Below, piece by piece: positions 11,057-59,537 of a stretch of 59,537 bases of DNA. The notes under the pieces are model-generated. The model had not been told where the DNA came from and did not search any database. It saw nothing but the letters and a program-made list of their open reading frames with translations. Numbering within the stretch: position 1 is the first letter of the stretch; the number at the start of each line of letters is the position of its first letter. Position numbers and translations under genes: made by a program. The stretch is taken from the NCBI GenBank assembly GCA_035489815.1, contig DATHJH010000013.1:1-59537 (forward strand), written 5' to 3'. The DNA comes from Candidatus Limnocylindria bacterium. Its GTDB lineage: Bacteria > Patescibacteriota > Saccharimonadia > Saccharimonadales > JAGQNK01.

Positions 11057-11244
11057 GAACCTATCCAAAATCTTTTCACCACGGCCGAGAGCAGTTTTCG
11101 GGTGTGAGCCGCTTGTTTTTTGGTTTGAAAGGTACCTAGTAAGTACCTTTCGGAGCACTAGTCTGATTAGAAGGCGAGCGGATTGCATGCGAACTTCTAT
11201 GTGGAGAAGGGTCGGAGTCAGAGGAAGAGATCCTGGATGGGTTC
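11057..11244. mobile_element. GAACC-MITE copy A (subtype 1)
   Basis: Ends GAACCTATCCAAAATCTT / AAGAGATCCTGGATGGGTTC; central AAAGGTAC..GTACCTTT hairpin; homologous to copies B, D, F. Confidence 0.9.
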
Positions 11245-11321
11245 TCAGATGCGTAAGCTCCATACCCACAACCGGAAAACCATTTGCCATACTCTGGAAT
11301 GTGTTGGCGCTAGCAGGAGGA

Positions 11322-11960
11322 TTATATTGTGGTTGTATTGGCAACCTGAGATTGTATACTTTCAACGAATGTTGCCAGAAGACTCGCATTGTCCTCCAGA
11401 GAAGAGTAGGCCCGTAGTGCCATAAATCCACGGGTGCCCTCTACCTGCCACTGGCCCATGGGCGGGGCCGCGTGCCATTCATCATAATTGAATAAAAGTA
11501 CCGAATCATTCAGTGTCTGTGTCACGGTTCTGGCGATTATTGGATTTAGTGCGGGGATGGTAGTTGCCGGCTCTGCCTCCATAGTAGGATCGCTGCTGTG
11601 TAAGGTGCCGCACGGTTTATCCGGAGTGGCAACGGCCCGGGCAAAGGCTATCTCTGCCTGAGGGCCGTCGCTACGGTGTATGGCAATGGTATCAACATCC
11701 GTATGATAGACATCAGGCTCCATAGTGAAGGACTTCGTCTGATATTCTACTGCAACGGGTACAGCGGCCAGAGTAGGAGTGGTATTGAGGCGGACAAGGT
11801 CTATGACATGTGCCGAAAATTGTTTGACTTGCTGCGGCAGATCGTCAGGCAAAATGAGGCGGCCGTCTGAACCGCGTGTCAGTTTTTGCATAGTATCGCA
11901 GCTGCTGCTAGGAAAACTGCAACCTCGATCAAGGTCTGGTGTCGGAATAATGAGAGCCAT
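11322..11960 (-). CDS. Hypothetical protein (possibly cupin-like)
   Basis: 212-aa ORF; LFNYDEWHAAP segment only loosely recalls ureidoglycolate-lyase cupins. Confidence 0.5.
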   Translation of the reverse strand: MALIIPTPDLDRGCSFPSSSCDTMQKLTRGSDGRLILPDDLPQQVKQFSAHVIDLVRLNTTPTLAAVPVAVEYQTKSFTMEPDVYHTDVDTIAIHRSDGPQAEIAFARAVATPDKPCGTLHSSDPTMEAEPATTIPALNPIIARTVTQTLNDSVLLFNYDEWHAAPPMGQWQVEGTRGFMALRAYSSLEDNASLLATFVESIQSQVANTTTI

Positions 11961-12078
11961 AACCCAAGCTAGTATACTACCCGTGATTCCGGGATCATTT
12001 TATTTTGGCAGAAGGTACGCAGGTACTGGTAATCTCTGTGGATAAATGTCTGGCTGGAGAGCTGCTGGCCAGGTGTTG

Positions 12079-12528
12079 CTACTCGGCGGATGCCATGCTG
12101 AGCGATGCAATATGAGCGCCGTTGGTGAAGAGAATATATGACTCTAGCACTTCACACGGTTGGGGTCCGTCAACAACGACGGTCAGGGGTACGGTTACGT
12201 TCTCGTATCCAGGGCTCGATGCTTCCCCAGCCTGTCCAATAATGGGGTCCCGATCTGTCTCAGCACACCTGACGGCAACAAAGGTCTTGTCAGCACCATC
12301 ACCGTCTAGCAGTGCTCCTATGCCAGAGGAGGGATTGTGATAGCTTGCCCTGACTTGCCCTTCCAGGCAGGTCACCGGGAATGTCAGCGCCGCGTCCGAT
12401 TCGGCCGAAGCATCCGGCGTAGAGTCATGCCGGACTATGCCAAACCCCACAGCCACAATGCACCCCAGGCTAACCATCAGCAGTCTTCGGGGAAGGGCTT
12501 CCGGGTTGGTTTGGAGGAAATTGCCCAC
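12079..12528 (-). CDS. Hypothetical membrane-anchored protein (start uncertain)
   Basis: ORF 12079..12585; GTG at 12528 chosen; hydrophobic helix LLMVSLGCIVAVGFGIV. Confidence 0.55.
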   Translation of the reverse strand: MGNFLQTNPEALPRRLLMVSLGCIVAVGFGIVRHDSTPDASAESDAALTFPVTCLEGQVRASYHNPSSGIGALLDGDGADKTFVAVRCAETDRDPIIGQAGEASSPGYENVTVPLTVVVDGPQPCEVLESYILFTNGAHIASLSMASAE

Positions 12529-12573
12529 GGGTGTCCCTTTGCAATTAGTATTTTGTACTATATCATGATAGAT

Positions 12574-13227
12574 ATGAAAGTTCAAATAATTAGTCTCTTT
12601 CCAGAGATGTTTCCGCCTGTGCTGGAGACTTCCATGTTGTTCAAGGCCAAGGACAAGGGCATTGTAGAGTATTCCTACATCAACCTGCGGGACTTTGGTT
12701 TGGGGCCGCGCAAAACGGTAGATGATACTCCGTACGGCGGTGGCGACGGCATGCTACTCAAGCCCGAGCCGCTATTTGCCGCAGTAGAACATGCTATAGG
12801 GTACGACCCTGTAGCAAAGGTGTATCTGATGACGCCTCGCGGCGAGCGGTTTGTTCAGAAACGGGCACAGGAGATTGCGGACGAGAAAAAGGGGATGATT
12901 ATCATCTGCGCCAGGTATGAAGGCTACGATGAACGGATTACTGCACTTGTAGACAGGCAAATCAGTATCGGCGATTTTGTACTGACAGGCGGCGAACTCC
13001 CGGCCATGATGCTGGTAGATGCGGTTGTGCGGCTCCTTCCGGGCGTGCTCGGGGGCGAAAAGAGCGCAGAGATAGAAAGCTTCAGCCATGGCAATAACCT
13101 GGAGTTCCCTCAGTACACCAGGCCAGAAGATTTTCGAGGCATGAAGGTTCCAGAAGTACTCCTTAGCGGAAATCATGCACAGATAGAAGCTTGGCGTAAG
13201 CAGCAATCCGACGCACAGAAGAAGTAA
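12574..13227 (+). CDS. trmD: tRNA (guanine-N1)-methyltransferase TrmD
   Basis: MKVQIISLFPEMF, VDDTPYGGGDGM, CARYEGYDER, SIGDFVLTGGE, VPEVLLSGNH. Confidence 0.98.
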   Translation: MKVQIISLFPEMFPPVLETSMLFKAKDKGIVEYSYINLRDFGLGPRKTVDDTPYGGGDGMLLKPEPLFAAVEHAIGYDPVAKVYLMTPRGERFVQKRAQEIADEKKGMIIICARYEGYDERITALVDRQISIGDFVLTGGELPAMMLVDAVVRLLPGVLGGEKSAEIESFSHGNNLEFPQYTRPEDFRGMKVPEVLLSGNHAQIEAWRKQQSDAQKK

Positions 13228-13237
13228 GGGAAAAGAG

Positions 13238-13272
13238 CAGCCCGGGCTCGAATTTATTTCGAGCCCGGGCTG
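13238..13272. terminator. Perfect 15-bp hairpin after trmD
   Basis: CAGCCCGGGCTCGAA-TTTAT-TTCGAGCCCGGGCTG. Confidence 0.6.
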
Positions 13273-13317
13273 ATTAGAAAAACCGCAAGGTTTGTCTCAT
13301 CAGGCGAAGCCGCCGAA

Positions 13318-13362
13318 AACCATGCTGAGATCGAGAAGTGGCGCAAGGCACAGAGCGGATAA
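13318..13362 (+). pseudogene. trmD: Second, diverged copy of the trmD 3' end
   Basis: Encodes NHAEIEKWRKAQSG* versus NHAQIEAWRKQQSDAQKK* in the intact gene. Confidence 0.8.
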
Positions 13363-13391
13363 TTGCCCTAGATAAAGTAGAGAGCTATAGT
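13363..13391 (+). promoter_or_regulatory. Promoter for the 13418 orphan gene
   Basis: TTGCCC-17 nt-TATAGT. Confidence 0.5.
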
Positions 13392-13417
13392 TCAGGAAAC
13401 TAATAAGGATACAAAGC

Positions 13418-13849
13418 ATGGCTCATGAACATGAATCACTAATTGCACACATCACTGCCACTCCCCAAACAGAGCTAACGTTTCAAGCCATAACCGTTGG
13501 TGATACAAGCACTATGATCGTTGCTGATCGTACTTGTTTTAGCGTGGGGTTTGTAGTTGCCGGTGAGGATCAATGCAATATGACGTATCGGCTGACGGAC
13601 AGAGAAGGTGAAAAGCCGTGGGACCTGGATGTTCTGAATCAAAGATCTAGTATGATAGCTACACGGGCGACACTTAGAGGAGAAGGGGTGATAGGGCTGG
13701 ATCCTGGGGTCGTGGGCGAAACCCGTGAGACTCTGGGCCCTGACGGGGAGCCCATTGCAGTGGCTGCTCTTTCGCACTCTGAGGTGGTATTGGGCATTGC
13801 GGCGATTGGTCACTTTGAAGTGGTGAATCTGCCCGAGCCTACTCTCTGA
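13418..13849 (+). CDS. Hypothetical protein (orphan)
   Basis: 143-aa ORF with AAGGA RBS and upstream promoter. Confidence 0.55.
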   Translation: MAHEHESLIAHITATPQTELTFQAITVGDTSTMIVADRTCFSVGFVVAGEDQCNMTYRLTDREGEKPWDLDVLNQRSSMIATRATLRGEGVIGLDPGVVGETRETLGPDGEPIAVAALSHSEVVLGIAAIGHFEVVNLPEPTL

Positions 13850-13869
13850 TCACGTCACTACACGACCTG

Positions 13870-14043
13870 TTAGTAGTTAAATCCTCCGCCGTTGCCCCCG
13901 CCGCTATCGCGCATAAAGAAATAGTAGACTAAGCCATAAACTACCACGGCGATTACCAGGTAGATGACTACCCATTGCCAGGTCGGCCGTTTGCCGTATC
14001 CGTGTGATTGTTTTTGGGGTGGCTGTGCATTTAAGTCTGCCAT
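13870..14043 (-). CDS. Small single-pass membrane protein (57 aa); not in the ORF track
   Basis: MADLNAQPPQKQSHGYGKRPTWQWVVIYLVIAVVVYGLVYYFFMRDSGGGNGGGFNY; AAGGAG RBS. Confidence 0.75.
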   Translation of the reverse strand: MADLNAQPPQKQSHGYGKRPTWQWVVIYLVIAVVVYGLVYYFFMRDSGGGNGGGFNY

Positions 14044-14426
14044 AGGTAACTCCTTTCTTTACTCACTATACATAAGCAGTATACTCGCCCTAAGGCTTCC
14101 GGGACAGGAATTGCAGCCTCTATAGTGGCTCTACTGCCGTTACTTGCAAACCTTAGGCGGTGCTGGCTGCACTACAGTATTTAAAGCAAATTGGAGTACA
14201 CGTGGCGGCAGAGAACCCAACTACGATCCTGGGTATAGAGACGGGCGGTGAAGGATACTTCCACTGGATAGACTGGTAAAGGTAGTATTGCCAACGGGGC
14301 TTGGGAAGTTGGAAGTAGGCTTCACGACCGAAAGTCGATAACACCCTGAGCATCAATCTTCTGTTACAAAACAAGGACACGTCCCAGACTTGCTATACTA
14401 GGTAAGTACTCAATAAGGAGGGTGTC

Positions 14427-14810
14427 ATGAGATTATTTGCCATCAAGCCGGTTTACGCCCACTGCGATTTGCCTTGCGGCGTGTATGACCCGGCGCAGGC
14501 TCGCATAGAGGCAGAGTCTGTTCACAAGATTTTAGAAAAATATCCGGACTTGGACCATGAAGAGGATCGCTGGCGGGCGGTGTTCATCAAGGAACAGCGT
14601 CTGGAACTGGTCAAGCACCACCTGTGGGTGCTGTGGACAGATTATTTTAAACCCGAGCATTTAGAGAAATACCCTAACCTGCATGATCTATTCTGGCAAG
14701 CAACTAAACAAGCTGGCGCGGTCAAAAAATCTGTGGACAAAGCCGACAGCCAGAAATTGCTGGACATGATTGATGAAATCGCCAAGCTCTTCAAAGCAAC
14801 TAAATCCTAA
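14427..14810 (+). CDS. sodN: Nickel superoxide dismutase precursor
   Basis: Nickel hook HCDLPCGVYDPA after an 11-aa leader; AAGGAGG RBS. Confidence 0.97.
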   Translation: MRLFAIKPVYAHCDLPCGVYDPAQARIEAESVHKILEKYPDLDHEEDRWRAVFIKEQRLELVKHHLWVLWTDYFKPEHLEKYPNLHDLFWQATKQAGAVKKSVDKADSQKLLDMIDEIAKLFKATKS

Positions 14811-15123
14811 ATTTCCACTGGTACTTCGCCAAATATACGGACACAGCATGATGCCGGTCCTGCCGCCCGGTACGGTGGTGTATGGTTGGCGCTGGTTCCG
14901 ACGGCTAAAACCCGGCGACATCGTAATCTTCTTTCATAACGACAAAGAAAAGATCAAACGTATAGAAAAGATTACTGACGGGAAAGTCTATGTAGTCGGT
15001 GACCACCAGGACGTCAGCACCGACAGCCGCCACTTTGGCTGGCTGGACAAGGAAGCAGTAGTAGCCAAACTCATCTGGCCCCGAGCCCCCAAAAACAGGG
15101 CCGAAGGGTTTGACTCTCCCTAA
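14773..15123 (+). CDS. sodX: NiSOD maturation peptidase (S26-like)
   Basis: GHSM.PVL..G, KEKIKRI, VVGDH..VSTDSRHFGW; overlaps the sodN end. Confidence 0.9.
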   Translation: MKSPSSSKQLNPKFPLVLRQIYGHSMMPVLPPGTVVYGWRWFRRLKPGDIVIFFHNDKEKIKRIEKITDGKVYVVGDHQDVSTDSRHFGWLDKEAVVAKLIWPRAPKNRAEGFDSP

Positions 15124-15358
15124 TTTCCAACTGCCACTAAATCCCCCCTTGTTAGAGGAACGTCCTTTTTGTTCTTTTTGTTCCTTTTTTTTGTTATCGG
15201 TTTTTCAAGGCTTGGATACCAACTATATTGGCCCTTGGCCAATTATTGTAACAATCCCTTCAGGGATTGTTAACTTCCTGCAGCCCTCCCGGGCTCCTGC
15301 GAAAAACTGATTGGGCGGGCAAGTACCGGCGCTACCGTACTCCTGAGGATTGTTTGAG

Positions 15359-15395
15359 CCAAAAAAGCCCTTTTTTGTATCCTGGGCTTTTTTGG
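15359..15395. terminator. Probable bidirectional terminator between convergent sodX and ndh
   Basis: CCAAAAAAGCCC ... GGGCTTTTTTGG 12-bp inverted repeat. Confidence 0.55.
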
Positions 15396-15565
15396 TGAGT
15401 TTCCGAAAGGATGCGGCTAGCCGGTACTTGATCCGAACAGTCATGTTTTCGTAACCGTCCGGGGAGGTTTTTGCATACACTCCACCCCGCGGCGAATCCT
15501 CTCGCCGTGGGGACCCCGGTTTTGACCGCAAAAGTATCATCACATGCTTCTTGGAGAGAAGAAAA

Positions 15566-16780: not shown

Positions 16781-16814
16781 GCTTTTCTCCTGCTCTTGTT
16801 GGAATGTGTCTTGC

Positions 16815-16887
16815 TGTCATGCCGGGCTTGACCCGGCATCCAGTCAGTAGCGATCCTGCTAGATTCCGGCTCAAGGCCGGAATGACA
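16815..16887. repeat. CGTC-type REP doublet
   Basis: TGTCATGCCGGGCTTGACCCGGCATCCAG plus inverted CTAGATTCCGGCTCAAGGCCGGAATGACA. Confidence 0.9.
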
Positions 16888-16966
16888 CAGGGGTAACGTG
16901 AATCTATATATAGTCCACGGCTCGTTATGTCTCATTCCTAAACATGGTACCATAGTGCTAAAGGTT

Positions 16967-18625: not shown

Positions 18626-18633
18626 GGGTATTG

Positions 18634-32483: not shown

Positions 32484-32530
32484 GAACCCATTCCAAGTCT
32501 TTTCACCACGGCCGAGTCCGCCTTTCGGGC
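32484..32530. mobile_element. Truncated GAACC-MITE (subtype 1, one end only)
   Basis: TTA|GAACCCATTCCAAGTCTTTTCACCACGGCCGAG matches the start of copy A. Confidence 0.75.
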
Positions 32531-32601
32531 CTCAAAGAGTTTATGTATTTTTGGCATAAAGAGGTAAACTATAGACTAAGTAACAAATAAGGAGCCGCAC
32601 C

Positions 32602-33795: not shown

Positions 33796-35124
33796 CTACC
33801 TTCCAAGTTTTTTAATGGCTGCCTGAATCTGTGAAAAGTTCTGTATGCCAGCAGCAGGAATGAGGGCTGACTGGCCAGTCGGAGTGGTGTAGCTGGCCAG
33901 CAGATTTTTGCCGTTGATGTCCCGCAAGGTCACGGGCTGTAGCTTGTCCTCGGGTACGCTGGTGAAGAGCCGGTACAGGGGCAGGACTTCGCCGATCTGT
34001 ATGTCAGTTTTAACGTTGTTGCCCGCGGCGTCAAAGATCTTGCCGTTTGTACGCGGGTCAAGGATTAACTTCCAGTCCAGTTCGTTTTTAATGGCCCCAA
34101 AGACCTGTTGCTGGTTTTGGGTGCGGTTAAAGTCTGACAGGGGAAAACCGTAGGAACCATAGGTGGAGCCGCGGGCGCGGGTCAGGCGCAGAGCCGTCTG
34201 GCCGTCTATGGTATGGGTGCCGTTGCTCAGCTTTAGCTTGCCGCCTTGTTCACGGGGGAAGTTTGGGTCGTAGATGCCGCGGGGGTCGGGACTTTTTATG
34301 GTCACACTGACGCCGTCCAGGGCATCCACAACCTCTTTGACTGCAGTGTAGTTGATGAGCGCGTAGTAATGCAGTTCTATGTCCAGGTTGTCGCTGATCA
34401 CTTTTTCCAGCAAGCCCATACCGCCGCGGGGGTAGTCGGTGCCACGGAACTTCATGGTTTCGCCAGCCTGGTAGGCTTCATTGACTTTGGCGGCACCATA
34501 GTCAGGAATGGTCACGTACAGATCACGCGGTACGCTCAGCATGTATCCGGTGTGGCTGTCTTTGTCCAGACTGAGGATAAGGACCGAGTCTGTAAGCAAG
34601 GCTCCGGCATGTCCCGGGTCATCGACAGAGTAGCCCACCAGCAAGATGTTTACTCTGCCGTCCGCAGTCGCTTGCAGTTCGTCCGTGAGTAGTACTTTCC
34701 AGGCATTGTTGGTGCCAAACAGCTTTTTGCTGGCCCCGGAGAAGTTACGAAAATCCCAGGCGGCAACGACTGCAAGAAAAATAAAAGGAACCAGGAAAAG
34801 CAGTATGAGCAGTCTTTTCCAGATTTTACGCTTTTTCCCGGGTGGGGCCTCATCCACGTCCGGCGTCGTAAATTTGGCCGGCTGGTAAGAGGTGGTTGTT
34901 ATAGCGTGGTAGTTCTTAGAACCCATCCAGGATCCTTTCTCCTTGCCGAGACCACTTTTCGGGTGTGAGCCGCTTGTTTTTTGCTCAGAAAGGTACCTAT
35001 CGGTACCTTTCTGAGCAAAAGGCGGGCGGATTGCATGCGAAAACTGGTCGGAGTCAGTGGAAAAGATCCTGGATGGGTTCTTAGGCTGGGGGAGAGGGGT
35101 CTTCTTGGTTTTTTTAGAACCCAT
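33796..35124 (-). CDS. LytR-CpsA-Psr (LCP) family protein with MITE-modified N-terminus
   Basis: RVNILLVG, LTDSVLILS, LSVPRDLYV, ALRLTRAR, DFNRTQNQQ; the ATG at 35124 lies inside a MITE TIR. Confidence 0.92.
   Translation of the reverse strand: MGSKKTKKTPLPQPKNPSRIFSTDSDQFSHAIRPPFAQKGTDRYLSEQKTSGSHPKSGLGKEKGSWMGSKNYHAITTTSYQPAKFTTPDVDEAPPGKKRKIWKRLLILLFLVPFIFLAVVAAWDFRNFSGASKKLFGTNNAWKVLLTDELQATADGRVNILLVGYSVDDPGHAGALLTDSVLILSLDKDSHTGYMLSVPRDLYVTIPDYGAAKVNEAYQAGETMKFRGTDYPRGGMGLLEKVISDNLDIELHYYALINYTAVKEVVDALDGVSVTIKSPDPRGIYDPNFPREQGGKLKLSNGTHTIDGQTALRLTRARGSTYGSYGFPLSDFNRTQNQQQVFGAIKNELDWKLILDPRTNGKIFDAAGNNVKTDIQIGEVLPLYRLFTSVPEDKLQPVTLRDINGKNLLASYTTPTGQSALIPAAGIQNFSQIQAAIKKLGR
34919..35080. 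mobile_element. GAACC-MITE copy B (subtype 1), in frame within the LCP gene
   Basis: 162 bp, TIR GAACCCATCCAGGATC, TTA/TAA duplication on both sides. Confidence 0.95.
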
Positions 35125-35277
35125 TTCAAAACCCCCTCTCTGCTGCAAACCATGTCTGGCGGACCAAATTGCCGTTTTGTTTCGCAGCGTATCTACGGAT
35201 ACGCTTTGTCACAAGAACAACAATTTCGCCCTGCCAGAACATGCTTTTCGCCCTGAAAGGGGATTTGAAATGGGTTC
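35117..35277. mobile_element. GAACC-MITE copy C (subtype 2) at the LCP start
   Basis: 161 bp, TIR GAACCCATTTCAAA, TA on both sides; homologous to 49081-49304. Confidence 0.92.
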
Positions 35278-40107: not shown

Positions 40108-40110
40108 GAA

Positions 40111-40275
40111 ACCTGAATCTCAAAACCTCCAATCCTGTCATACCGGGCTAGACCCGGGTATCCAGTCAATAAAGAAAGTTAATTTATATCTACTGGATCC
40201 CCAGTCAAGCCTGCCCTCGACTCCGATCGGGGGCTGGGGATGACAGGGGAGGGGTTGGGGTTTTGAGGGTCAGGT
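40111..40275. mobile_element. Family R2 element (reverse orientation)
   Basis: ACCTGAATCTCAAAACC ... GGTTTTGAGGGTCAGGT; REP pair with a nested insert; starts 3 nt after the stop codon. Confidence 0.85.
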
Positions 40276-40356
40276 ACGCAAAACCTTGACTTTGCAGGTG
40301 GATGCTATTAAATAGGATTAAACTGACAAATGACAAACAAAAAAGGTAGTTTTCTT

Positions 40357-41637
40357 ATGAATCCACGGCAAAACACACGCGCAAACAACAACGGTCAAGG
40401 GGCCGAGCCTCAGGAGCCGCAGGTCATAGGCCCGCAACAGTCCCCGCCGCCTTCACTTGCTTCCGGGCCATTTGTGAGCCCCTCTGGTGACGTTTCGCTG
40501 CCAACAACTCCAACAACTCCGGGAACTCCTGTTCAGTACCCTTCGCCTGCGCCGCCCGTTACGGGAAGGAAAAAGCGGCCTGGAAAGAAGGTGCTGGCAT
40601 TGGTAGCGGCACTGCTGGTTGTGGGCCTGGGTGGCGGTGTCTTTGCCTACGTGACCATTATGAACAATTCGCCTGAGAAGATCCTGGCTGATGCACTCAC
40701 CCACACCATGACAGACCTGCTGGACAGAAAACCTTCCCGCCTGGCGGGGAAACTCACGTTTACCTCAAAGGAGGCCGATGCTGGCTATTCAGTGGTCGTA
40801 GATTTTGACTCTAAGCAGGTTGGCGGCAACGGCCAATTTGGCGCCACTGTGCAGGTGAAGGTTGGGCAGGTGCTGGACGTGTCCGTGACCGGAAAGGCTA
40901 TCAGCCAGGGGTCGGAGGCTGCTTATATAAAGCTTGATAACGTACAGAAAACACTTGACCAAGTCGTTGCCGGGAATCCGCAAGCGGCCGCATCGGCAAC
41001 CATGGTCAAGCCGCTTATCCAAAAAATAGACGGCCAGTGGATAAAGATCGAAGAAAAAGATTTAGCCGAATACGGCCTGGGCGAATCAAAAGAGACTGTA
41101 GATGCGTGTGGAGGGGCACTGGAAAAGCTGCGCATTTCCGAAACCGATCAAAAGCAGGTGAAGGAAATCTTTCTTGCTAATCAATTTGCCATTGCCAAAG
41201 AGGAACTGCCAGGAGAGGCCGTGGATGGCGACAAAAGCTACCACTACAAACTGGACCTGAATGAGGAAGCCGGCCTGCATTTTGCCAAAGACTTCATGGA
41301 ATTGGAATCGTTTTCCGCGGTAAAAGAAGCCTGCAAGCTCAAGCAAGAGGATATAGACCAGAGTCTGGAGGACTTAAAAAAGCAGAAGGACGAAGAGGTA
41401 GAGGCAGAACCGGTCTTTGAACTGTGGGTTAGCCAAAAATCCCGCCGCCCAACAAAGTTAAAAGTAACCCTGGATGATAAAGAATTTTCGATGGAAAACG
41501 TTGCCACCATCAAGCTTGATGCTCCGGATCTTACCATTGAAATACCGGGTAAGTTTACAACTTTGCAGGAACTTACGACTGAAATTGAGAAGCTGCCAAA
41601 AAGCGGCCAGGCATTAGGCTGGAGCGCCTGGCGCTAA
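40357..41637 (+). CDS. Membrane-anchored exported protein with Pro-rich cytoplasmic N-terminus
   Basis: Pro-rich N-terminus, TM VLALVAALLVVGLGGGVFAYV; its stop TAA is the left TSD of MITE G. Confidence 0.75.
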   Translation: MNPRQNTRANNNGQGAEPQEPQVIGPQQSPPPSLASGPFVSPSGDVSLPTTPTTPGTPVQYPSPAPPVTGRKKRPGKKVLALVAALLVVGLGGGVFAYVTIMNNSPEKILADALTHTMTDLLDRKPSRLAGKLTFTSKEADAGYSVVVDFDSKQVGGNGQFGATVQVKVGQVLDVSVTGKAISQGSEAAYIKLDNVQKTLDQVVAGNPQAAASATMVKPLIQKIDGQWIKIEEKDLAEYGLGESKETVDACGGALEKLRISETDQKQVKEIFLANQFAIAKEELPGEAVDGDKSYHYKLDLNEEAGLHFAKDFMELESFSAVKEACKLKQEDIDQSLEDLKKQKDEEVEAEPVFELWVSQKSRRPTKLKVTLDDKEFSMENVATIKLDAPDLTIEIPGKFTTLQELTTEIEKLPKSGQALGWSAWR

Positions 41638-41811
41638 GAACCCATCCAGGATCTCGCTCCCGATGCCAAAATTGCTCCCTTCTTGTATGAAAAGCGAGTC
41701 CCAATTCGTTCTGGTTTGTCTGGCGTACCCGTGGGTACGGCAGACGGATCAGGGCGGATTGGGGCCGGAATGGGCGGTTTTGGGCCGGGATTGGAGATTT
41801 TGGATGGGTTC
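41638..41811. mobile_element. GAACC-MITE copy G (subtype 3)
   Basis: 174 bp, TAA on both sides; followed by a further GAACCTATCC end remnant at 41815. Confidence 0.93.
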
Positions 41812-41845
41812 TAAGAACCTATCCCAAGGAGAGAGTGTTCAGGGG

Positions 41846-43224: not shown

Positions 43225-43487
43225 GGGATCCTCCGGTTATTTATTTAACACAGTATTATTAGCACTACCGTTGTAACTGGAATGCTAGAATTCACACAGA
43301 GCCCACCTCATACCTCCATCCCGCCCGGTTTTCCGGTCAGAAGCCGCCCATTCTGGCGTCAATTCGCCCCAACTTCCCCGCCGCACCTATGGGTACGCTC
43401 ACTGGATAAAAGGTGGAACCAGATGTATCCCTACTTGTTGCGTTTGCGGCGAAAACTAGAGCAAATCAGCGCTGGAGTTGAGTAGCC

Positions 43488-43829
43488 CTACAGCGCTAAA
43501 ACTAATCGCATGCCTTCGTCGATTTGTTGCATCGCTGTATGATCGATCCAACCGATCTTTTCTGCCAGAAACTGTTTGTCTATGGTAATAACTTGTGAGA
43601 CATTCGCTACTGACTCCCGACTTAAGCCTGCCTTCTCTCCCGTTAATTTTACATTCCCGGGAGCTGTAGCCAGGCGGAGGTTTGAAGTAACGGCGACCAC
43701 AACTATGGTACTGATGCGGCTCTTATTAAAGGTATCGGCCTGCACAATCACCACTGGTCGTCTGTAGCCCGGCTCAGAGGCTACTGGTTCTGACAGCTCA
43801 GCCCACCAAACTTCCCCTCGCTTCACCAT
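43488..43829 (-). CDS. mazF: MazF/PemK-family endoribonuclease toxin
   Basis: MVKRGEVWW, SEPGYRRPVVIVQ, SRESVANVSQVITIDK. Confidence 0.95.
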   Translation of the reverse strand: MVKRGEVWWAELSEPVASEPGYRRPVVIVQADTFNKSRISTIVVVAVTSNLRLATAPGNVKLTGEKAGLSRESVANVSQVITIDKQFLAEKIGWIDHTAMQQIDEGMRLVLAL

Positions 43830-44059
43830 TTATCCTTGAGCAAGGATTGACGTTGTAGCTTTTGAAGTGTTGGATCAAGAGAAGAGTCTTCCGTGCCGTA
43901 GACTTCATTCAATTTCTTGGTGACATTGTCGCCATTTTGTCTTTCCATATAGCTTTTAAGAGCTTGAGTATATAGCTGGCTACGTGATTTACCAAGCTGG
44001 CTTGCCAGCTTTTCGGCTGACTCAAAAACTTTATCGGGAATGGATATAGCTGTCTTCAT
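43823..44059 (-). CDS. Ribbon-helix-helix antitoxin
   Basis: MKTAISIPD..FESAEKLA..LGKSRSQLY; overlaps the toxin start. Confidence 0.9.
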   Translation of the reverse strand: MKTAISIPDKVFESAEKLASQLGKSRSQLYTQALKSYMERQNGDNVTKKLNEVYGTEDSSLDPTLQKLQRQSLLKDKW

Positions 44060-44066
44060 ATCTAAA

Positions 44067-44096
44067 AGTATAACTTTTGTTATACTGTCGAGTCAA
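44067..44096 (-). promoter_or_regulatory. TA promoter with overlapping operator
   Basis: TTGACT-18 nt-TATACT, 7 nt before ATG; palindrome AGTATAAC-TTTT-GTTATACT at 44067-44086. Confidence 0.75.
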
Positions 44097-44150
44097 TCCC
44101 TGCCGCAAGCCGAATGATACAGCATTGTTGTAGAAGTTAGAGCCAGTTTT

Positions 44151-44546
44151 CTAGTTCAATTTTCGAGGCCACATGTATAAACGCCAATATGTTTTTAGCC
44201 TAGAGCTATCCAGGCTATGAACTAAAATGGCAAAGAAACCAGCCGGATCGTGCAAAACAGTATGCAGATTAGCGCGTATTTCCTTGCCATACCTACCAAG
44301 CCAATGATGACCATCTTCTACATGGTAAGCTTCATGCTGCAGTAAGGCTCTCTCAACTCTTTTTGGAAGATTCTCACGTAAATAAATCCTTCCTTTATAG
44401 ACGTAGCCAAACAAACTAAAGTCAGCTTCTCTAAGTTTTGAATCATTTATATAGTGAACTTGGTATCTTTTGCCATTAATGGTACGAGGTACTGTTCGAA
44501 TTGTTTCTGTACTTTCAATAATTTTGCCTAAATAAGAAGTGGCCAT
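44151..44546 (-). CDS. Hypothetical protein with HExxH motif
   Basis: LLQHEAYHVE; AT-rich; TATAAT 6 nt before ATG. Confidence 0.7.
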   Translation of the reverse strand: MATSYLGKIIESTETIRTVPRTINGKRYQVHYINDSKLREADFSLFGYVYKGRIYLRENLPKRVERALLQHEAYHVEDGHHWLGRYGKEIRANLHTVLHDPAGFFAILVHSLDSSRLKTYWRLYMWPRKLN

Positions 44547-44819
44547 ACGATAATTATAGACCAATGAGTGTGGCACGTTCTGGAAACTGGGGCGGATAAA
44601 AGAAAATGGATCGATTTTGGCACCCGGGGAGCGAGATATGAAATGGGCTCATAGAAAATTTCTTTGGAGGTTGCCGCAACCACAGTAGAAATTCTAAGTT
44701 GTAAGTAATTCAGGCAAGGCAGGCGATAGCAGCCGACATATGCAACCGTTCATACTGCAGTATTTGTATAATGGCTATATACTGGTAACATAATCTGCGT
44801 TTCAAGGAGAGGAGGTACT

Positions 44820-45329: not shown

Positions 45330-45493
45330 ACCTGACCCTCAAAACCCCACTCTCTCCACTGTCATTCCCTGACCCCCGATCGGGGTCGAGGGCAGGCTTG
45401 ATCAGGGAATCCAGTAGATACAATTAATTTCTTTATTGACTGGATACCGGGTCAAGCCCGGTATGACGGGATTGGAGGTTTTGAGACTTGGGT
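45330..45493. mobile_element. Family R2 element
   Basis: ACCTGACCCTCAAAACC ... GGTTTTGAGACTTGGGT; REP pair with a nested insert; starts 3 nt after the stop codon. Confidence 0.85.
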
Positions 45494-45531
45494 AATGTAG
45501 CTATATTTCTGCTGAAAGGTTTATTGCCACC

Positions 45532-48398: not shown

Positions 48399-48584
48399 GA
48401 ACCCATCCAAAATCTTTTCCACTGACTCCGACCCTTCTCCACATAGAAGTTCGCATGCAATCCGCTCGCCTTCTAATAAGACCAGTGCTCCGAAAGGTAC
48501 TACAAGGTACCTTTCAAACCAAAAAACAAGCGGCTCACACCCAAAAACTGCTCTCGGCAAGGAGAAAAGATCCTGGATAGGTTC
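48399..48584. mobile_element. GAACC-MITE copy D (subtype 1)
   Basis: 186 bp, TAA on both sides; closely similar to copy A in reverse. Confidence 0.93.
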
Positions 48585-49054
48585 TAAGATTTGTCCTCCA
48601 GGGAAAGGGTGAGGGCCGTTATATCAACTGGAAAGATTCTGCGGGTCATAACCTCTTGCCGCTCAGCTCCTGACAGTGCTTGGATTTCCTCCGTATGCCC
48701 CACCAAGAGTACGTGTGCTGCCGGTGTGATAGCAATTATATCCTGTACTCCATGAACCAGGGTATCCAGGGGCGGTGATTCGTCACGGGCGAGCAAGGTA
48801 CTCTCTGTGGCCAGACCTGTGTCTGCACGCAGGGTTTTCTCAAAAACTTGTGCAGTTTGTCTAGCCCAAAGTTCTGGTGCAAAGTGGATGGCCGTGGAGC
48901 TAGCAGTCTCGCCCAACCTTTGAGCAAACTCCACTGCCTTACTTTCAATTAACGATCTGCCTTCTGGGGTAAGGTGTAAGTTTTTCCTGCTGTATGTCCC
49001 ATACATAACTGCGTACAAGTCGGGACGTGGTTCGGTATGTGCCGAGTCGCTCAT
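48584..49054 (-). CDS. Degenerate histidine-phosphatase (SixA-like) protein
   Basis: LYAVMYG (in place of RHG), LTPEGR, RQTAQ, VLLVGH; stop TAG is built from the MITE D boundary. Confidence 0.55.
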   Translation of the reverse strand: MSDSAHTEPRPDLYAVMYGTYSRKNLHLTPEGRSLIESKAVEFAQRLGETASSTAIHFAPELWARQTAQVFEKTLRADTGLATESTLLARDESPPLDTLVHGVQDIIAITPAAHVLLVGHTEEIQALSGAERQEVMTRRIFPVDITALTLSLEDKS

Positions 49055-49080
49055 ACAATATAGTTTAACATGTGAGCTAA

Positions 49081-49304
49081 GAACCCATTTCAAATCCCCT
49101 CCCTACTGCAAACCCTGTCCGGTGCACCAGGAGGCTGTTTTGCTTCGAGATCGTGGCTTTTTGGAAGCTAGGCAGGCTAAGCCTGCCTGCTTGCCAAAAA
49201 GAGACCATGTCACCATATCTAAAGATATGCTTTGTTACAAGAACAGCCACCTGGCACTACCGGGCCAGGCTTTTCGTACTTGGGAGGAGATTTGACATGG
49301 GTTC
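49081..49304. mobile_element. GAACC-MITE copy E (subtype 2) with a nested palindromic insert of about 63 bp
   Basis: 224 bp, TAA on both sides; aligns to copy C except for the central AGGCAGGC-TAA-GCCTGCCT hairpin block. Confidence 0.92.
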
Positions 49305-52394: not shown

Positions 52395-52431
52395 AGAACT
52401 TACGCAAAGTCACGTTTGACATTAGCTTTAA

Positions 52432-52448: not shown

Positions 52449-52490
52449 ATACAACAACAGTAATAAAATTACAATTGAGAGGCGTACAAC

Positions 52491-52886
52491 ATGAAAATCT
52501 CATACACCAAAATATTCGTAAACGATCAAGACAAAGCTTTGAAGTTTTATACTGAAACACTGGGCTTCGTGAAGAAAACCGACATCACCAAAGGGGAGTA
52601 CAGGTGGCTCACCGTTGTCTCGCCGGAGGATCAAAACGGTACCGAACTCATACTTGAAAAGAATGATGATCCAGCAGCAAAAACATACCAAAAAGCAATC
52701 TTTGAGCAAGGTAATGACGCGGCAAACTTTGATGTTTCTGATGTTCAGGCAGAGTATGAACGCTTGACTGGTCTTGGCGTGAAGTTCACCATGGAGCCAA
52801 CGGAAGTAATGGAGGGTGTGACAGTAGCCATGCTCGACGATACCTGCGGCAACTTGATACAAATACAAAAAACCGGGCAAAAGTAA
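52491..52886 (+). CDS. VOC/glyoxalase-family protein
   Basis: IFVNDQDKALKFYTETLGF, RWLTV, DDTCGNLIQI. Confidence 0.92.
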   Translation: MKISYTKIFVNDQDKALKFYTETLGFVKKTDITKGEYRWLTVVSPEDQNGTELILEKNDDPAAKTYQKAIFEQGNDAANFDVSDVQAEYERLTGLGVKFTMEPTEVMEGVTVAMLDDTCGNLIQIQKTGQK

Positions 52887-52899
52887 GCCTTTCAACTGG

Positions 52900-55140: not shown

Positions 55141-55214
55141 AGCATTGTTAGAACATTGGTAGTCTGACCTTGGACTATACCCGAAATTCAATTTTTTGCC
55201 CGAAACTTTATAAC

Positions 55215-55676
55215 CTACCCTACTTGTTGATACTTTTCCTCAAGTAATTTAGCTCTTTTGTGTGCACTGGCGCCAAGGGGCCGAAGGTTATGTATGGGTG
55301 TGTATGTTATGTATTGAGTTCCCTTCTGAGCTAATGCTTTAGCAGAGCTGATTACAACTTCGGGCAAAACGTGCGATTGATCTGCGGCTACATCTATAAT
55401 TATAGAATCGCTGGGATTTTGAAGATCTTGATCAACAACCCAGACGTGATACGGAACTACTTTCTGTCCTTTGTGCCAAACTTCACCGACCATCATGGTA
55501 AATGATCGTTTATTATACATGCGATGCAGGTAGCGGCTTAATACATAGCTGGTAGCAGTACACTGCCCGGCCGATATAGTCTGGCTCGGTTTACGCGGCA
55601 AAAATTTGGGAGATATGGTTTCATCGTCCCAGCACATACTAATCTGCTGCCTGAATTTGTGAATGGTATCTTCCAT
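55215..55676 (-). CDS. Hypothetical protein with possible Cys-His-Asp triad (YunG-like; start uncertain)
   Basis: SAGQCTATS, YHVW, IDVAADQ. Confidence 0.55.
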   Translation of the reverse strand: MEDTIHKFRQQISMCWDDETISPKFLPRKPSQTISAGQCTATSYVLSRYLHRMYNKRSFTMMVGEVWHKGQKVVPYHVWVVDQDLQNPSDSIIIDVAADQSHVLPEVVISSAKALAQKGTQYITYTPIHNLRPLGASAHKRAKLLEEKYQQVG

Positions 55677-55884
55677 AACTACTTCGTACCTTCTGTTAAT
55701 ACTACCATGACATAAAAAACTCTTGGAGGAGTCTTTTGTTCGAGCCGTAGTTGAAGCCACTTCTGACTGGGTATGAGGTTAGCACTTGGGTAGAGCGACC
55801 AGAGTCTGACAGCGCCGGCAAACCTACAAAGTAGCTATCTGTGCTTTATCCCGGGAGCTACTCACCATAGTGCGAGCAGTGTGG

Positions 55885-56469
55885 CTAAGTGGTGGGAGGT
55901 AGCCCAAAATCTTTTTCTATCTCTGAAATGAAGTCTTGATAATATTTTAACCCTAACTCGGCGACTTTTATCGGATCTGGCCAAATCAATCGAGTGGTTT
56001 TGTGGGTTAAAGGAGGGTTGTACCACTTACCCCTATCTTTTACTTGCATAAGCTCTACTCTTTCAGGTAGGACAGTTACCTCAAGTGGTTTGGAGCCTCT
56101 GTATTCAACGACCTGACCTTTACTAACCACTAACTTATCAATGTAAACAGACCCTTGAATTTTTGCTTCGTACTTACCTGGCTTGGTTTCTACTAGTGCC
56201 TGTATCGTATGCTGATCACTATTTCTGGCATGTTTCAGATAGCGTAGTAACTGATCTTTTCTTCTTTCTCTGGAATATTGTCCTTGCCAGGGCTGGAATC
56301 TATTTCTTATTGCAGAGCATTCCTGCTCTGCTTTCAGCCAAGCTTTTTCTATAGCAGCTAGATAATTTTTCCACTCAACTTCAAGCTCATCGAGTGTTTT
56401 AGCTTTACGCATCCTAATAAGTGATGTTTCGGCACTCTTTAACTCATTTTTGCAATGCTTAAGCTGCAT
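55885..56469 (-). CDS. AT-rich hypothetical protein with RxxxxH (HEPN-like) motif
   Basis: LRYLKHARNSDQH at the end of a helical N-terminal half. Confidence 0.65.
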   Translation of the reverse strand: MQLKHCKNELKSAETSLIRMRKAKTLDELEVEWKNYLAAIEKAWLKAEQECSAIRNRFQPWQGQYSRERRKDQLLRYLKHARNSDQHTIQALVETKPGKYEAKIQGSVYIDKLVVSKGQVVEYRGSKPLEVTVLPERVELMQVKDRGKWYNPPLTHKTTRLIWPDPIKVAELGLKYYQDFISEIEKDFGLPPTT

Positions 56470-56532
56470 AAAACCTTTCGGCCATGTTTGGTGCAAATCG
56501 TGGCTGGGGATGAGGGATTACTATACTTATCT

Positions 56533-56606
56533 TGGCTAGGGTGGAGGGATTCGAACCCCCGATCGTGGAACCAGAATCCACTGCCTTACCACTTGGCCAC
56601 ACCCTA
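56533..56606 (-). tRNA. tRNA-Gln (anticodon CTG) with encoded CCA
   Basis: TAGGGTG/CACCCTA acceptor stem, GTGGA-TTCTGGT-TCCAC anticodon arm, GGTTCGAAT T-loop, 3' GCCA. Confidence 0.97.
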
Positions 56607-56878
56607 TGAGTGCCAGGAAAAGTATACTAATTTTTAAAAGGGATTCGGGTCACCTTCGGTGCCCACATCCTGCGAACCCGACCTTCGGCTGCTCGCAACT
56701 CAAGCTGCTGCCTTGCCACGTGCCCTACTAGTCCCACAGTAACGTAAAGGATTGTACTAAAAAAGACAATAAATCGCCACTCTACTTCAGCTAGTGAGTG
56801 AAATACCTGATTGTGTATGTTAGTAAGTTTATGCTACCTTGGCAGCACTAATAACAGTATGTATAAGGGGAATATGTC

Positions 56879-57487
56879 ATGTCTTTTAGAAGTGTTGCTG
56901 CATTTGGTGCCGGAACAGCGTTAGCCGTTGGAATAGGTTGCTCGTCTGAAGAAGGATCGAGCGTTCCTGATTCTGCTAAAGAAATATGCTCCACGGCATT
57001 TGGCGCTATACGGCAGCTTGAGGGGTATGAAGTTTTTACAGAAGAAAGTGATCCTGTAGTTTCGCATGAGACAATCAACCCGCTAGATCCAGGTGTTGTT
57101 TATTTGAGAGGATGCGTTGCTGTTAACCCAGCGGATGGGGCAAGGCTGGGTATTGATCCTTTATTTACTGAGGTAGAGCGGTCAGATGGTCAGCGCGGGG
57201 TGGATTTTGCACTGGAGGAAGGCGCACGACCAGGAAGAGAGGCAGTATCTGTCCTGAGTGCTACAGGCGAGGGAGCCGGACTTTCCTCCGAGTATATTGG
57301 ACTACCTTCACTACCGGCCGGGGTATTACTGGCAACGTGTGAGGATGGTGATATTCCTACGCTAAGCCTGGAAGGGGTCACAGAAACCCGTAACCCGGAT
57401 GGGGATGTGGCTTACGACGCTTATACTGTGCAAGACGCTCAGTTTGGGTGTGCAGACCCAGGAGGCCTGATCTACATCCACGAGTAA
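56879..57487 (+). CDS. Hypothetical lipoprotein-like protein (orphan)
   Basis: Signal ending AVGIGC (lipobox-like); 202 aa. Confidence 0.6.
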   Translation: MSFRSVAAFGAGTALAVGIGCSSEEGSSVPDSAKEICSTAFGAIRQLEGYEVFTEESDPVVSHETINPLDPGVVYLRGCVAVNPADGARLGIDPLFTEVERSDGQRGVDFALEEGARPGREAVSVLSATGEGAGLSSEYIGLPSLPAGVLLATCEDGDIPTLSLEGVTETRNPDGDVAYDAYTVQDAQFGCADPGGLIYIHE

Positions 57488-57556
57488 GCACAGCTGCTTG
57501 AGTCGGGTTCGGGAAGACGTGTCTGGCCGGAGCGGCGCATACCGTATAATACGGAT

Positions 57557-59362
57557 ATGAGCGAGGGGCGTTCTAAGAACCCATTCCAAATCTTTTTCTC
57601 TGACTCCAACCGCTTTTCGCATGCAATCCAACTGCCTTTTGCTTCAAAAGGTAGCTATGGCTACCTTTCAAAACAAAAAACAGCCGGCTCACACCCGAAA
57701 AGCGGTTTCGGCAAGGAGAAAAGATCTGGAATGGGCTCTAAATACCTGCTGAAGCTAACGCTTCTTTTTGTGATTTACTTTGCGACGGGGAGGTTGGGAC
57801 TCAGCCTGGATGCAGTCAGTGGGTTTGCCGCACTGGTCTGGGCTCCTACTGGCATTGCTTTGGCGGCGATGCTTATTCTGGGCTTTCGCTACTGGCCAGG
57901 CATTGCGCTTGGCGCGGTGCTGGTCAATATGGCGGCCGGGGCTCCGCTGCTGGTCGCCCTCGGCATTGGATGTGGCAATACGCTGGAGGCGCTCGCCGGT
58001 GCGTATGTGCTAAAACGTTTTACCAGGTTTCAGATTTCTTTGGAGCGGGTTGCCGATGTGCTGAGGCTTATCTTTTTTGCGGCAATTGCCAGCACGTTAG
58101 TCAGTGCCACCATTGGCGTGACGAGCCTGCTATTGGGTGGTCTTGTTGCAGGAGAGGGGTACGGGGAAACATGGATTGCCTGGTGGATTGGGGATATGTT
58201 GGGGGCACTTATAGTTACGCCGTTGCTCCTGGTCTGGCACGAACGCCTGCGCAGGCCGCTGGATCCACGCCGATTTGCCTCCGCCGCAGTGCCTATCCTG
58301 CTGTTGGCTGCAGTAAGCATCGTGATCTTTCGCGGTCTGCCCGGGCGGGACATCAGGCCGCTTACCTTTGCCTACATTATTTTCCCGATTTTAATATGGA
58401 TTGCGCTGAGGTTTGGCCAGCGCGGCAGCGTCACGGCCATGTTCATAGTGTCATGCATTGCTATTTGGGAAACAGTCACTACCCACAACTATTCCAGTGC
58501 GCTTACGCTAAGCCAGAATCTTTTGTTGCTACAAAGTTTTATAGGCATCACCGCTGCGACTTTTATGACCATGGCGGCGGTGGTTTCCGAGCGCGAGCAA
58601 ACCCAGAAACGTCAACAGTACCTGGAACAAAAAGCAGCGCTGCTCACCAAACAGCGCTCCAGACTGGAGATGCTGAACCGGGCTAAGGACGAATTCATAT
58701 CAATTGCCTCTCATCAGCTCCGCACGCCTGCCACCGGCGTTAAGCAATACCTGGGTATGTTGTTGCAGGACTACGCCGGCCGCCTGAGCAAGCAACAGCA
58801 TGCTCACGTCACTACGGCATATGAAAACAACGAGCGGCAGCTAAAGATTATTGAAGATTTACTACACGTGGCGCGGATAGACGCCGGGAAACTGCCGCTG
58901 AACAAAACAACTTGCGACCTGAATAAGCTGATGGGCGAGGTAGCAGCCCAGCAAGCCGAGGCTTTCAAGGAGCGAGGCCAGAAATTGTTGTTTAGCCCAG
59001 CCAAAGGTTCTATAAAGGCCAGGGCCGATAAGGAGCTGCTGCGTATGGTCCTGGAGAACCTCATAGACAACGCCGGCAAGTATTCGCCAGCTGGCGAAAA
59101 GGTTCGTCTGAGCGTAAGCAAAATGGATAGGATGGTTCGGCTGGAGATACACGACAAGGGCTTTGGCATCACCAAAAAAGATCAGAAAAAGTTGTTTCAA
59201 AAGTTTTCCCGGGTGGACGCCCACTCTAACCTCATAGGTGGTTCCGGCCTCGGGTTATACTGGGCAAAAAAGGTTATTGACTTGCATGGGGGCAGTATTG
59301 ATCTTACGTCCGAGGCGGGCGAGGGCTCTACTTTTACGGTTAAGTTACCAGATAGTAGGTAG
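57557..59362 (+). CDS. MASE1-domain sensor histidine kinase with in-frame MITE near the N-terminus
   Basis: MASE1 (VWAPTGIALA, WWIGDMLG, WIALRFG), ASHQLRTP H-box, ENLIDNAGKYS, GSGLGLY; TATAAT 6 nt before ATG. Confidence 0.95.
   Translation: MSEGRSKNPFQIFFSDSNRFSHAIQLPFASKGSYGYLSKQKTAGSHPKSGFGKEKRSGMGSKYLLKLTLLFVIYFATGRLGLSLDAVSGFAALVWAPTGIALAAMLILGFRYWPGIALGAVLVNMAAGAPLLVALGIGCGNTLEALAGAYVLKRFTRFQISLERVADVLRLIFFAAIASTLVSATIGVTSLLLGGLVAGEGYGETWIAWWIGDMLGALIVTPLLLVWHERLRRPLDPRRFASAAVPILLLAAVSIVIFRGLPGRDIRPLTFAYIIFPILIWIALRFGQRGSVTAMFIVSCIAIWETVTTHNYSSALTLSQNLLLLQSFIGITAATFMTMAAVVSEREQTQKRQQYLEQKAALLTKQRSRLEMLNRAKDEFISIASHQLRTPATGVKQYLGMLLQDYAGRLSKQQHAHVTTAYENNERQLKIIEDLLHVARIDAGKLPLNKTTCDLNKLMGEVAAQQAEAFKERGQKLLFSPAKGSIKARADKELLRMVLENLIDNAGKYSPAGEKVRLSVSKMDRMVRLEIHDKGFGITKKDQKKLFQKFSRVDAHSNLIGGSGLGLYWAKKVIDLHGGSIDLTSEAGEGSTFTVKLPDSR
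57577..57738. mobile_element. GAACC-MITE copy F (subtype 1), in frame within the kinase gene
   Basis: 162 bp, TAA on both sides; homologous to copy B. Confidence 0.95.
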
Positions 59363-59386
59363 TCGTTCTACCCTGATGGGTTCTAA

Positions 59387-59537
59387 GAACCCATCTAGGA
59401 TCTCGCTCCCGATGCCAAAATTGCTCCATTTCGAGTACCAATTTGTTCTGGTTTGTCTGCCGTACCCGTGGGTACGGCAGACGGATCAGGGCGGATTGGG
59501 GCCGGAATGGGCGGTTTTGGCGCGGGATTGGAGATTT
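59387..59537. mobile_element. GAACC-MITE copy H (subtype 3), cut by the window end
   Basis: TAA|GAACCCATCTAGGATCTCGCTCCCGATGCC, nearly identical to copy G; preceded by a right-end remnant GATGGGTTC (59375-59383). Confidence 0.92.

Follow-up and report, generated by a model that had tools for sequence, protein, structure and literature searches.

The 59,537-bp window analyzed here (contig C13, DATHJH010000013.1 of assembly GCA_035489815.1, from Candidatus Limnocylindria bacterium, a member of the Saccharimonadales) is densely populated by short repeated elements that carry no genes. [quoted passage not shown] We observed multiple copies with common ends, target duplications, an IS with the same ends elsewhere in the genome, one insertion relative to an orthologous gene, and near-identical young copies.

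Element copies in the window and across the genome

We scanned the window for a 16-nt end pattern, GARCCYATYYSRRRWY, allowing at most one mismatch, and obtained 17 matches, a count that no shuffle out of 100 attained (mean 0.87). Clustering and alignment of the complete copies showed GAACCCAT...ATGGGTTC to be the outermost bases common to all copies, with end variants CCAGGATC, TCCAAATC, and TTTCAAATC, and with an end plus its flank of the form GGATGGGTTC-TTAG. The interiors define three families: T1 (162-188 bp, central hairpin AAAGGTACC...GGTACCTTT), T2 (about 161 bp, central hairpin CGTATCT...GATACG, with a long form that adds a 63-nt hairpin), and T3 (162-175 bp, central hairpin CGTACCCGT-GGGTACG). 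The central hairpins are maintained by compensatory changes, for example GGTAGC/GCTACC in the copy at 57577. In the window, seven copies are complete, one is cut by the contig end, one is split, and one is truncated; two further entries in the following list are solo-end remnants (TWA denotes TAA or TTA):

11057..11244, plus strand: complete T1 MITE, 188 bp, with non-TWA flanks TTG and TCA; nhmmer 174 bits over the full model
32484..32532, plus strand: T1 truncated to its left ~49 nt, with cTTA in front; found by repeat search, 80% identical to 11054-11102
34919..35080, plus strand: complete T1 MITE, 162 bp, flanks TTA/TTA, inside the minus-strand LCP gene 33796-35148
35117..35277, plus strand: complete T2 MITE, 161 bp, flanks TTA and TAC
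41638..41811, plus strand: complete T3 MITE, 174 bp, flanks TAA/TAA, the left TAA being 41635-41637
41815..41830, plus strand: solo left-end remnant GAACCTATCCCAAGG, sharing a TAA with the T3 copy at 41638 in a back-to-back junction
43300..43427, minus strand: 3' part of the split T3 copy (model positions 62-172), from a profile match
43428..44586, minus strand: 1.16-kb insert within the split T3 copy, containing a PemK/MazF-like toxin gene
44587..44650, minus strand: 5' part of the split T3 copy (model positions 1-76), with end GAGCCCATTTCATATC and flank ATA
48399..48584, minus strand: complete T1 MITE, 186 bp, flanks TAA/TAA
49081..49304, plus strand: long-form T2 MITE, 224 bp, with an extra central 63-nt hairpin, flanks TAA/TAA
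57577..57738, minus strand: complete T1 MITE, 162 bp, flanks TAA/TAA, in a MASE1 histidine-kinase gene
59370..59383, plus strand: solo remnant of a right end, CCTGATGGGTTC, directly next to the TAA of the 59387 copy
59387..59537, plus strand: T3 MITE cut by the contig end, 99-100% identical to copies that end contigs C18 and C20

An earlier reading of the sequence alone (the sequence-only reading) had proposed about ten copies or remnants with common termini and three unrelated interiors, each with a central hairpin. All of its coordinates held under repeat search and direct reading, and clustering and alignment bore out the three interiors. It had also stated that five complete copies are bounded by TAA or TTA on both sides and that the window lacks a transposase. 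We found exact TAA/TAA or TTA/TTA flanks on the complete copies at 34919, 41638, 48399, 49081, and 57577, and the window contains no transposase of the IS5 type.

We extended the census to the whole assembly (genome label G000; 1.40 Mb in 45 contigs, 99.8% complete) by profile searches with alignments of the three families. This yielded 84 loci (39 complete, 18 cut by contig ends, and 27 partial), which amount to 11.3 kb or 0.8% of the genome. Copies measure 138-268 bp and contain no transposase gene. Assembled internal copies have a median pairwise identity of 77-80% and are old. In each of the three types, the copies at contig ends are 99-100% identical to one another on differing flanks; young copies therefore exist in all three families, which indicates recent activity. 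These young copies are the cause of many assembly breaks among the 45 contigs. A metagenome contig from JGI, Ga0193742_1000156, bridges contigs C29 and C7. The pattern GAACCCAT-N140-170-ATGGGTTC occurs 19 times in this genome; of 400 others from the class, just 6 contain it, one to three times each. T1 DNA is absent from all 40 nearest species; the elements that are present in other Saccharibacteria are T2-like. A lineage-specific burst has taken place in this genome.

Two of the window copies carry extra sequence. The long T2 copy belongs to a sub-family with an additional GC-rich central hairpin of ~63 nt (core GGCAGGCTAAGCCTGCC; window 49130-49200), which also occurs at C18:13841-14108, C1:6386-6507, C8:14071-14194, and C35:13553-13762 and is possibly a nested mini-element. 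The split T3 copy (43300-44650) is broken near model positions 62-76. Its insert holds the toxin gene (43491-43829; Pfam PF02452, 94.6 bits), a small upstream open reading frame (ORF) at 43829-44062, and a 141-aa ORF at 44154-44576; either a cassette landed in a MITE or the arrangement is a MITE-bounded passenger cassette (MIC-like).

The partner insertion sequence and its target site

A search of the genome for an IS5-family transposase bounded by the same ends found a 940-bp IS at C5:27370-28309, with perfect 16-nt TIRs (GAACCCATCCAAAATC) and flanks TAA and TTA. The IS ends match the right end of T3 over 19 nt, and the MITEs share 16-19 nt with both IS ends. Its orfA encodes a DUF4096 protein and its orfB a DDE_Tnp_1 transposase (PF01609, 104.7 bits); the NCBIfam model NF033580 (transpos_IS5_3) scores 147 bits against a cut-off of 110. 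The two frames overlap at CTTAAAAAAAAATTAG, a slippery run of nine A residues (A9), with orfB in the -1 frame relative to orfA, and a fused OrfAB protein is probably produced by -1 slippage on this run. By tblastn and PF01609 searches over the assembly, transposase genes of this kind are present only on C5 and C17. The C17 gene belongs to an IS982-family IS with very different ends and another repeat family, which leaves the C5 copy as the sole one of the IS5 type. The insertion point of the C5 IS coincides with the TAA stop codon of a response-regulator gene (region C5:27370-28365), and a 52-bp collapsed end-pair, TTA-GAACTATCC...GGGATGGGCTC-TAA, follows the IS.

This transposase is rare in the order (4 of 301 genomes). 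Another Saccharibacteria genome (G100) has a 73%-identical IS of the same architecture, with TIR GAGCCTGTTCAAAATCTCC and a cTAA flank. Relative to that copy, orfA of the C5 IS has one extra G that leads to an early stop, and the C5 sequence, including the extra G, recurs in an independent Logan assembly of SRR7026477. The visible IS copy therefore looks disabled. Near-identical MITE copies argue for recent activity despite this, and present-day mobility would need an intact IS copy that may be unassembled or recently lost. The MITEs are not simple deletion derivatives of the IS, because their interiors are unlike it beyond ~19 nt.

We distinguished two classes of element ends. Class I ends (GAACCCAT-CCA or -TCC) make up all of T1 and roughly half of T3. 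Of 67 such ends, 62 are bounded by TAA or TTA, and an exact 3-bp TWA duplication lies at the exact boundary in 16 of 19 complete copies genome-wide. In three copies, as well as in the IS, one flank is TAA and the opposite one TTA. Position -4 is C at 58 of 72 TWA-flanked ends, so that the target reads CTWAG, a palindrome, with T enriched at -5 and -6. We considered a TA duplication of the IS630/Tc1 type and rejected it, since duplication always extends to the third flank base and the cognate IS belongs to the IS5 family.

Class II ends (GAACCCAT-TTCA, -TGCA, or -CACA) comprise most of T2 and some of T3, and are found in the window at 35117-35277 and at the end 44635-44650. The sequence-only reading had proposed a 3-bp TWA duplication for the elements as a whole; this stood for class I but failed for class II, in which TWA is missing at 35 of 41 ends and boundary shifts give no consistent duplication (best 7 of 17). 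Class II flanks include the recurrent forms ATT[el]ATA and TAT[el]AAT (el, element), and inverted flanks such as AGT[el]ACT, also seen in other Saccharibacteria. Class II copies might have been moved by a different, unseen enzyme or mechanism, their likeness to class I being confined to the outermost 8 nt. We take this seriously, although we judge it less likely than not. Besides the contrast in TWA flanks and the failed boundary shifts, the recurrence of ATT[el]ATA and AGT[el]ACT flanks, in other genomes too, speaks for a separate mechanism, as does the T2-like nature of the elements in other Saccharibacteria. However, the two classes are equal in length, rod architecture, and outer 8 nt, T3 interiors carry both kinds of end, some T2 copies have clean TAA/TAA flanks (49081-49304), and C is enriched at -4 here as well (25 of 51). 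The genome also offers no second IS5-type transposase: we considered one as the class II partner, and the only other DDE_Tnp_1 gene is that of the IS982-family IS, whose ends are quite different.

IS5-family elements of the IS427 group have two ORFs with frameshifting and make duplications of 2-4 bp. Two ORFs and a 3-bp duplication are present here, and frameshifting is predicted from the A9 overlap. The best annotated relative of the C5 IS is an IS5-family element of Lactiplantibacillus plantarum and L. pentosus plasmids, whose OrfB is 66% identical over its full length. The L. plantarum element is ~859 bp long, with ends GAACCTGTTTAAAATCT (GAACC...AAAATC), an A-run between two frames, and a TTA/TTA duplication. 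From the species and the length (853-859 bp), it is probably ISLpl3, an IS5-family element of L. plantarum/pentosus that ISfinder places in the IS427 group (table in PMC9670130) and whose matches span 853 bp (PMC13518405). The resemblance to an ISLpl3-like IS extends to overall size (~860-940 bp), to the two ORFs meeting at an A-run, to the ends (GAACCTGTTTAAAATCT versus GAACCCATCCAAAATCT here), and to a 3-bp TTA duplication preceded by C in both; it differs in its host phylum, and our searches yielded no MITE derivatives of ISLpl3.

The sequence-only reading had assigned the family to the IS1031 subgroup of IS5. The IS5 family was supported by the NF033580 and PF01609 matches, and the subgroup became doubtful. 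Insertion at a 3-nt site is described as characteristic of the IS1031 group (PMC2516522), and the 3-bp TNA-type duplication, the GA(A/G) ends, and the 940-bp length of the IS would suit that group, which shares with the IS GA-initial ends and a size of 850-950 bp. Transposases of the IS1031 group are, however, generally the product of one ORF (PMC3196728, PMC2516522), in contrast to the two ORFs with a slippery A9 found here, and the nearest annotated relative, with its TTA duplications and similar ends, fits ISLpl3 of the IS427 group. We therefore assign the IS to the IS427/IS1031 clade and, on these sequence features, consider IS427 the likelier subgroup.

Insertions in genes and at stop codons

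We next consider insertions that affect coding sequences. In a MASE1 histidine-kinase gene, exactly 55 codons derive from the T1 copy at 57577-57738 (162 bp) and its TAA duplication; they follow codon 6, and the long ORF is MSEGRS-(55 codons of T1)-KYLLKLTLLF. The closest kinase homologue (73% identity, Logan SRR31258466) starts with MIEGRLGYIAKLTLLL and reads MIEGRLGYIAKL without the 55-codon insert; it shares the upstream sequence GTATAATAC with the window gene. Judged from this comparison, the T1 element did insert in the kinase gene, and the orthologue represents the empty site. The end of the element (ATGGGTTC-TAA) provides an alternative start codon (ATG GGC TCT AAA, encoding MGSK; MGSKYLL...), which was chosen by the gene caller in another assembly (P0001). 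Downstream of the orthologous kinase gene (Logan SRR31258466, L026 1850-2045) lies a SAM-synthetase gene, and the conserved-looking leader that precedes it might be a riboswitch.

The T1 copy at 34919 likewise keeps the reading frame (162+3 nt, 55 codons); it lies close to the 5' end of the LytR_cpsA_psr (LCP) gene, 33796-35148 on the minus strand. The inserts in the LCP and kinase genes (34916-35083 and 57557-57740) use the same T1 strand and frame and encode homologous 55-residue peptides, and no stop interrupts this frame in any of the genome's eight T1 copies that are 3n long.

Empty alleles were found at the level of the orthologue (the kinase without the 55 codons) and not at the level of DNA, where none was found in metagenome contigs. 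A metagenome scan with the T1 core recovered five stretches, all 100% identical to this genome and from the same population. Exact-protein look-ups returned only same-population contigs (SRR7026477), one of which ends inside a MITE. Among sister genomes there is no other member of the genus, and the gene order around the 41638 copy is not conserved in members of the family.

The sequence-only reading had suggested a preference for TAA stop codons. By crude ORF-based gene calls, 13 of 51 TWA-flanked insertions (the IS included) share 2 nt or more with the stop codon of a neighboring gene that reads toward the element. Among non-disruptive sites, the expected overlap with stop codons is 9.4% for TWA and 16.1% for CTWAG, compared with the observed 25% (binomial p = 7e-4 against TWA sites and 0.057 against CTWAG sites). 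The preference is thus weak once CTWAG is considered. CTWAG contains TAA or TAG on both strands, the terminal C and G of the element rebuild the motif, and 86% of the genome is coding; most of the apparent preference can therefore be attributed to the target motif combined with purifying selection.

Two individual cases noted from the sequence were confirmed. The TAA stop of gene 40330-41637 (41635-41637) is the left duplication of the 41638 copy. The orthologue in genome G006 stops one codon later (..GWSSWRR* versus ..GWSAWR*), so the native C-terminus of the window gene has been retained. The stop of the minus-strand gene 48584-49093 is made at an element edge, its TAG consisting of the last C of the 48399 copy plus the TA of the duplication; the reconstructed empty site, CTAAG, yields the same TAG.

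The back-to-back junctions that the sequence-only reading placed at 41808-41818 and 59380-59390 were borne out, and both lie next to solo-end remnants. GTTC precedes 12 of 72 TWA-flanked ends, at least seven of which run on into a recognizable end (ATGGGTTC or ATAGGTTC) of an adjacent copy or remnant, for example in a T3-TAA-T1 arrangement on C36 and in the 52-bp collapsed end-pair beside the IS. Re-insertion into old sites, as suggested earlier, is explained by insertion into CTWAG motifs that are rebuilt at old junctions.

We propose the following mechanism. The transposase would be made from orfA and orfB by -1 slippage on the A9 run, would recognize the common GAACCCAT(CC/TCC)A..ATC ends, and would thus mobilize the MITEs in trans. 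Elements would be inserted into the palindrome C-TWA-G, with duplication of TWA. Because CTWAG holds a stop codon on both strands and is re-created by the terminal C and G of the element, insertions at gene ends and beside older copies would be silent and survive. Most other insertions would be purged by selection in this gene-dense genome, and some T1 copies with a length of 3n would persist as in-frame inserts within the first codons of genes.

The window also contains a second, unrelated MITE-like family. Its palindromic elements of ~165-190 bp lie at 5985-6190, 40110-40275, and ~45340-45495, with solo units at 675-707, 10047-10079, 10793-10825, 16811-16843, 18915-18960, and 19700-19751. 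Their ends are ACCTGA(N)TCTCAAAACC(Y)CC, their inner units CTGTCAT-hairpin-ATCCAG, and the core motif has 44 matches genome-wide. These ends equal those of the IS982-family IS on C17 (G000 C17:29378-30306; NF033520, 144 bits).

Strand-asymmetric rods and relation to known systems

The elements fold into long rods, and the two strands are not equivalent. The T3 rod has 66 consensus pairs, 16 of which show double compensatory changes. In each of the 27 complete copies of T1 and T3, one strand folds better than the other, by 26 kcal/mol on average, with 9-16 G·U pairs compared with 0-5. An alignment of the left arm with the reverse complement of the right arm, which assumes no structure, gave sense:antisense ratios of G·T-type transitions of 165:32 for T1 and 136:25 for T3. 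The asymmetry of the T2 arms is weak and in the opposite direction (35:56). Foreign Saccharibacteria elements with the same ends but other interiors have the same asymmetry. The left and right ends of one copy are also more alike than the ends of different copies (0-7 of 10,000 permutations reached the observed value), and end variants such as GAGCCTATTCCAAATC mark either side of one copy. In related ISs, too, the two ends are symmetric but of different sequence, and part of this co-variation may therefore reflect descent from different IS variants. The strand asymmetry is real.

It is conceivable, though in our view unlikely, that the ~160-nt rods are selected as a strand-specific single-stranded nucleic acid, either a structured RNA or a folded single-stranded DNA (ssDNA) intermediate for the IS5-type transposase. 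A related idea, about which we are equally doubtful, holds that the elements are mainly structured strand-specific nucleic acids (RNA or an ssDNA transposition intermediate) and that the IS5-type ends merely spread the rod, whose conserved shape would be what selection maintains. The folding difference in every T1 and T3 copy, the structure-free arm alignment, the double compensatory changes in T3, and the recurrence of the asymmetry with other interiors in other Saccharibacteria would all fit. So would the near-restriction of mismatches between the arms to G·U on one strand and the co-variation of the two ends of a copy. However, the T2 bias is weak and opposite, and the G·U positions are mostly inherited within each family, so that they represent few independent events. 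The elements have no orientation bias with respect to flanking genes (co-directional sense/antisense: T1 2/4, T3 6/3, T2 4/3), which led us to reject a role as terminators or mRNA elements. A search against Rfam gave no family match for the elements, with only a tRNA matched in the window. If the rod were the selected unit, MITE amplification in Saccharibacteria would depend on a folded strand and not only on double-stranded TIR recognition.

We return to the elements as MITEs of an IS5-family IS, the reading we prefer, against which several results weigh. The only cognate transposase gene in the assembly carries the extra G in orfA and its early stop, and the MITE interiors share nothing with the IS outside the terminal ~19 nt. 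Class II lacks a regular duplication under any boundary shift, and no IS with class II ends (GAACCCATTTCA) was found in our searches. There is no DNA-level empty allele, the reconstructed empty site having 0 matches in metagenome contigs. Finally, neither the co-variation of ends nor the strand-asymmetric rods are predicted by plain cut-and-paste transposition. That the elements are not transposons at all, but REP-like palindromes or small RNA genes that recombination or duplication has spread, would accord with their long rod-like structure, mostly intergenic location, and lack of an intact transposase, but is highly improbable given exact 3-bp duplications at a defined target, 16-19-nt ends in common with a bona fide IS, a copy inside a coding sequence that is uninterrupted in the orthologue, and identical copies on unrelated flanks.

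PIF/Harbinger elements are the eukaryotic relatives of IS5 and need a second, Myb-like protein. The maize PIF target is CWCTTAGWG, and the associated Tourist MITEs include the mPing/Ping pair. Our elements resemble this system in mechanism only: a TWA duplication lies within an extended palindrome, here CTWAG with a weaker TTC..GAA extension, and, as in Tourist, one set of ends is common to many short families whose interiors are unrelated. The PIF/Harbinger system differs in being eukaryotic and in having the Myb-like partner.

Among bacterial repeats, MITEs inserted in frame into genes are already known, from Rickettsia among others (PMC10969869). The Rickettsia palindromic elements, ERIC, Correia/NEMIS, and the Coxiella QMITEs (PMC10969869) are similarly ~150-bp palindromes with long hairpins, some of them in frame in ORFs, like T1 in the kinase and LCP genes, and they supply starts and stops. 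They have other ends and another or no known parent, and a strong G·U bias of one strand is not mentioned for them in the papers that we consulted. A MITE survey of 183,232 prokaryotic genomes does not name Saccharibacteria or the candidate phyla radiation (CPR) in its text (PMC11602168). Our full-text literature search for MITEs together with Saccharibacteria found no report, and neither did a looser search for Patescibacteria among the papers that it listed. The family is a MITE family in the ordinary sense, unusual in its abundance in a CPR genome and in its strand-specific rod; only the strand-asymmetric rod and the co-varying ends exceed a routine MITE description.

Saccharibacteria, as members of the CPR, have small and gene-dense genomes, and here three MITE families occupy 0.8% of 1.4 Mb. 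Such elements are a practical problem for the assembly and annotation of metagenome-assembled genomes. In these epibiotic bacteria they also give rise to protein and regulatory variation, through starts, stops, and 55-residue inserts in sensor kinase and LCP genes, and they are a possible basis for a native transposon tool.

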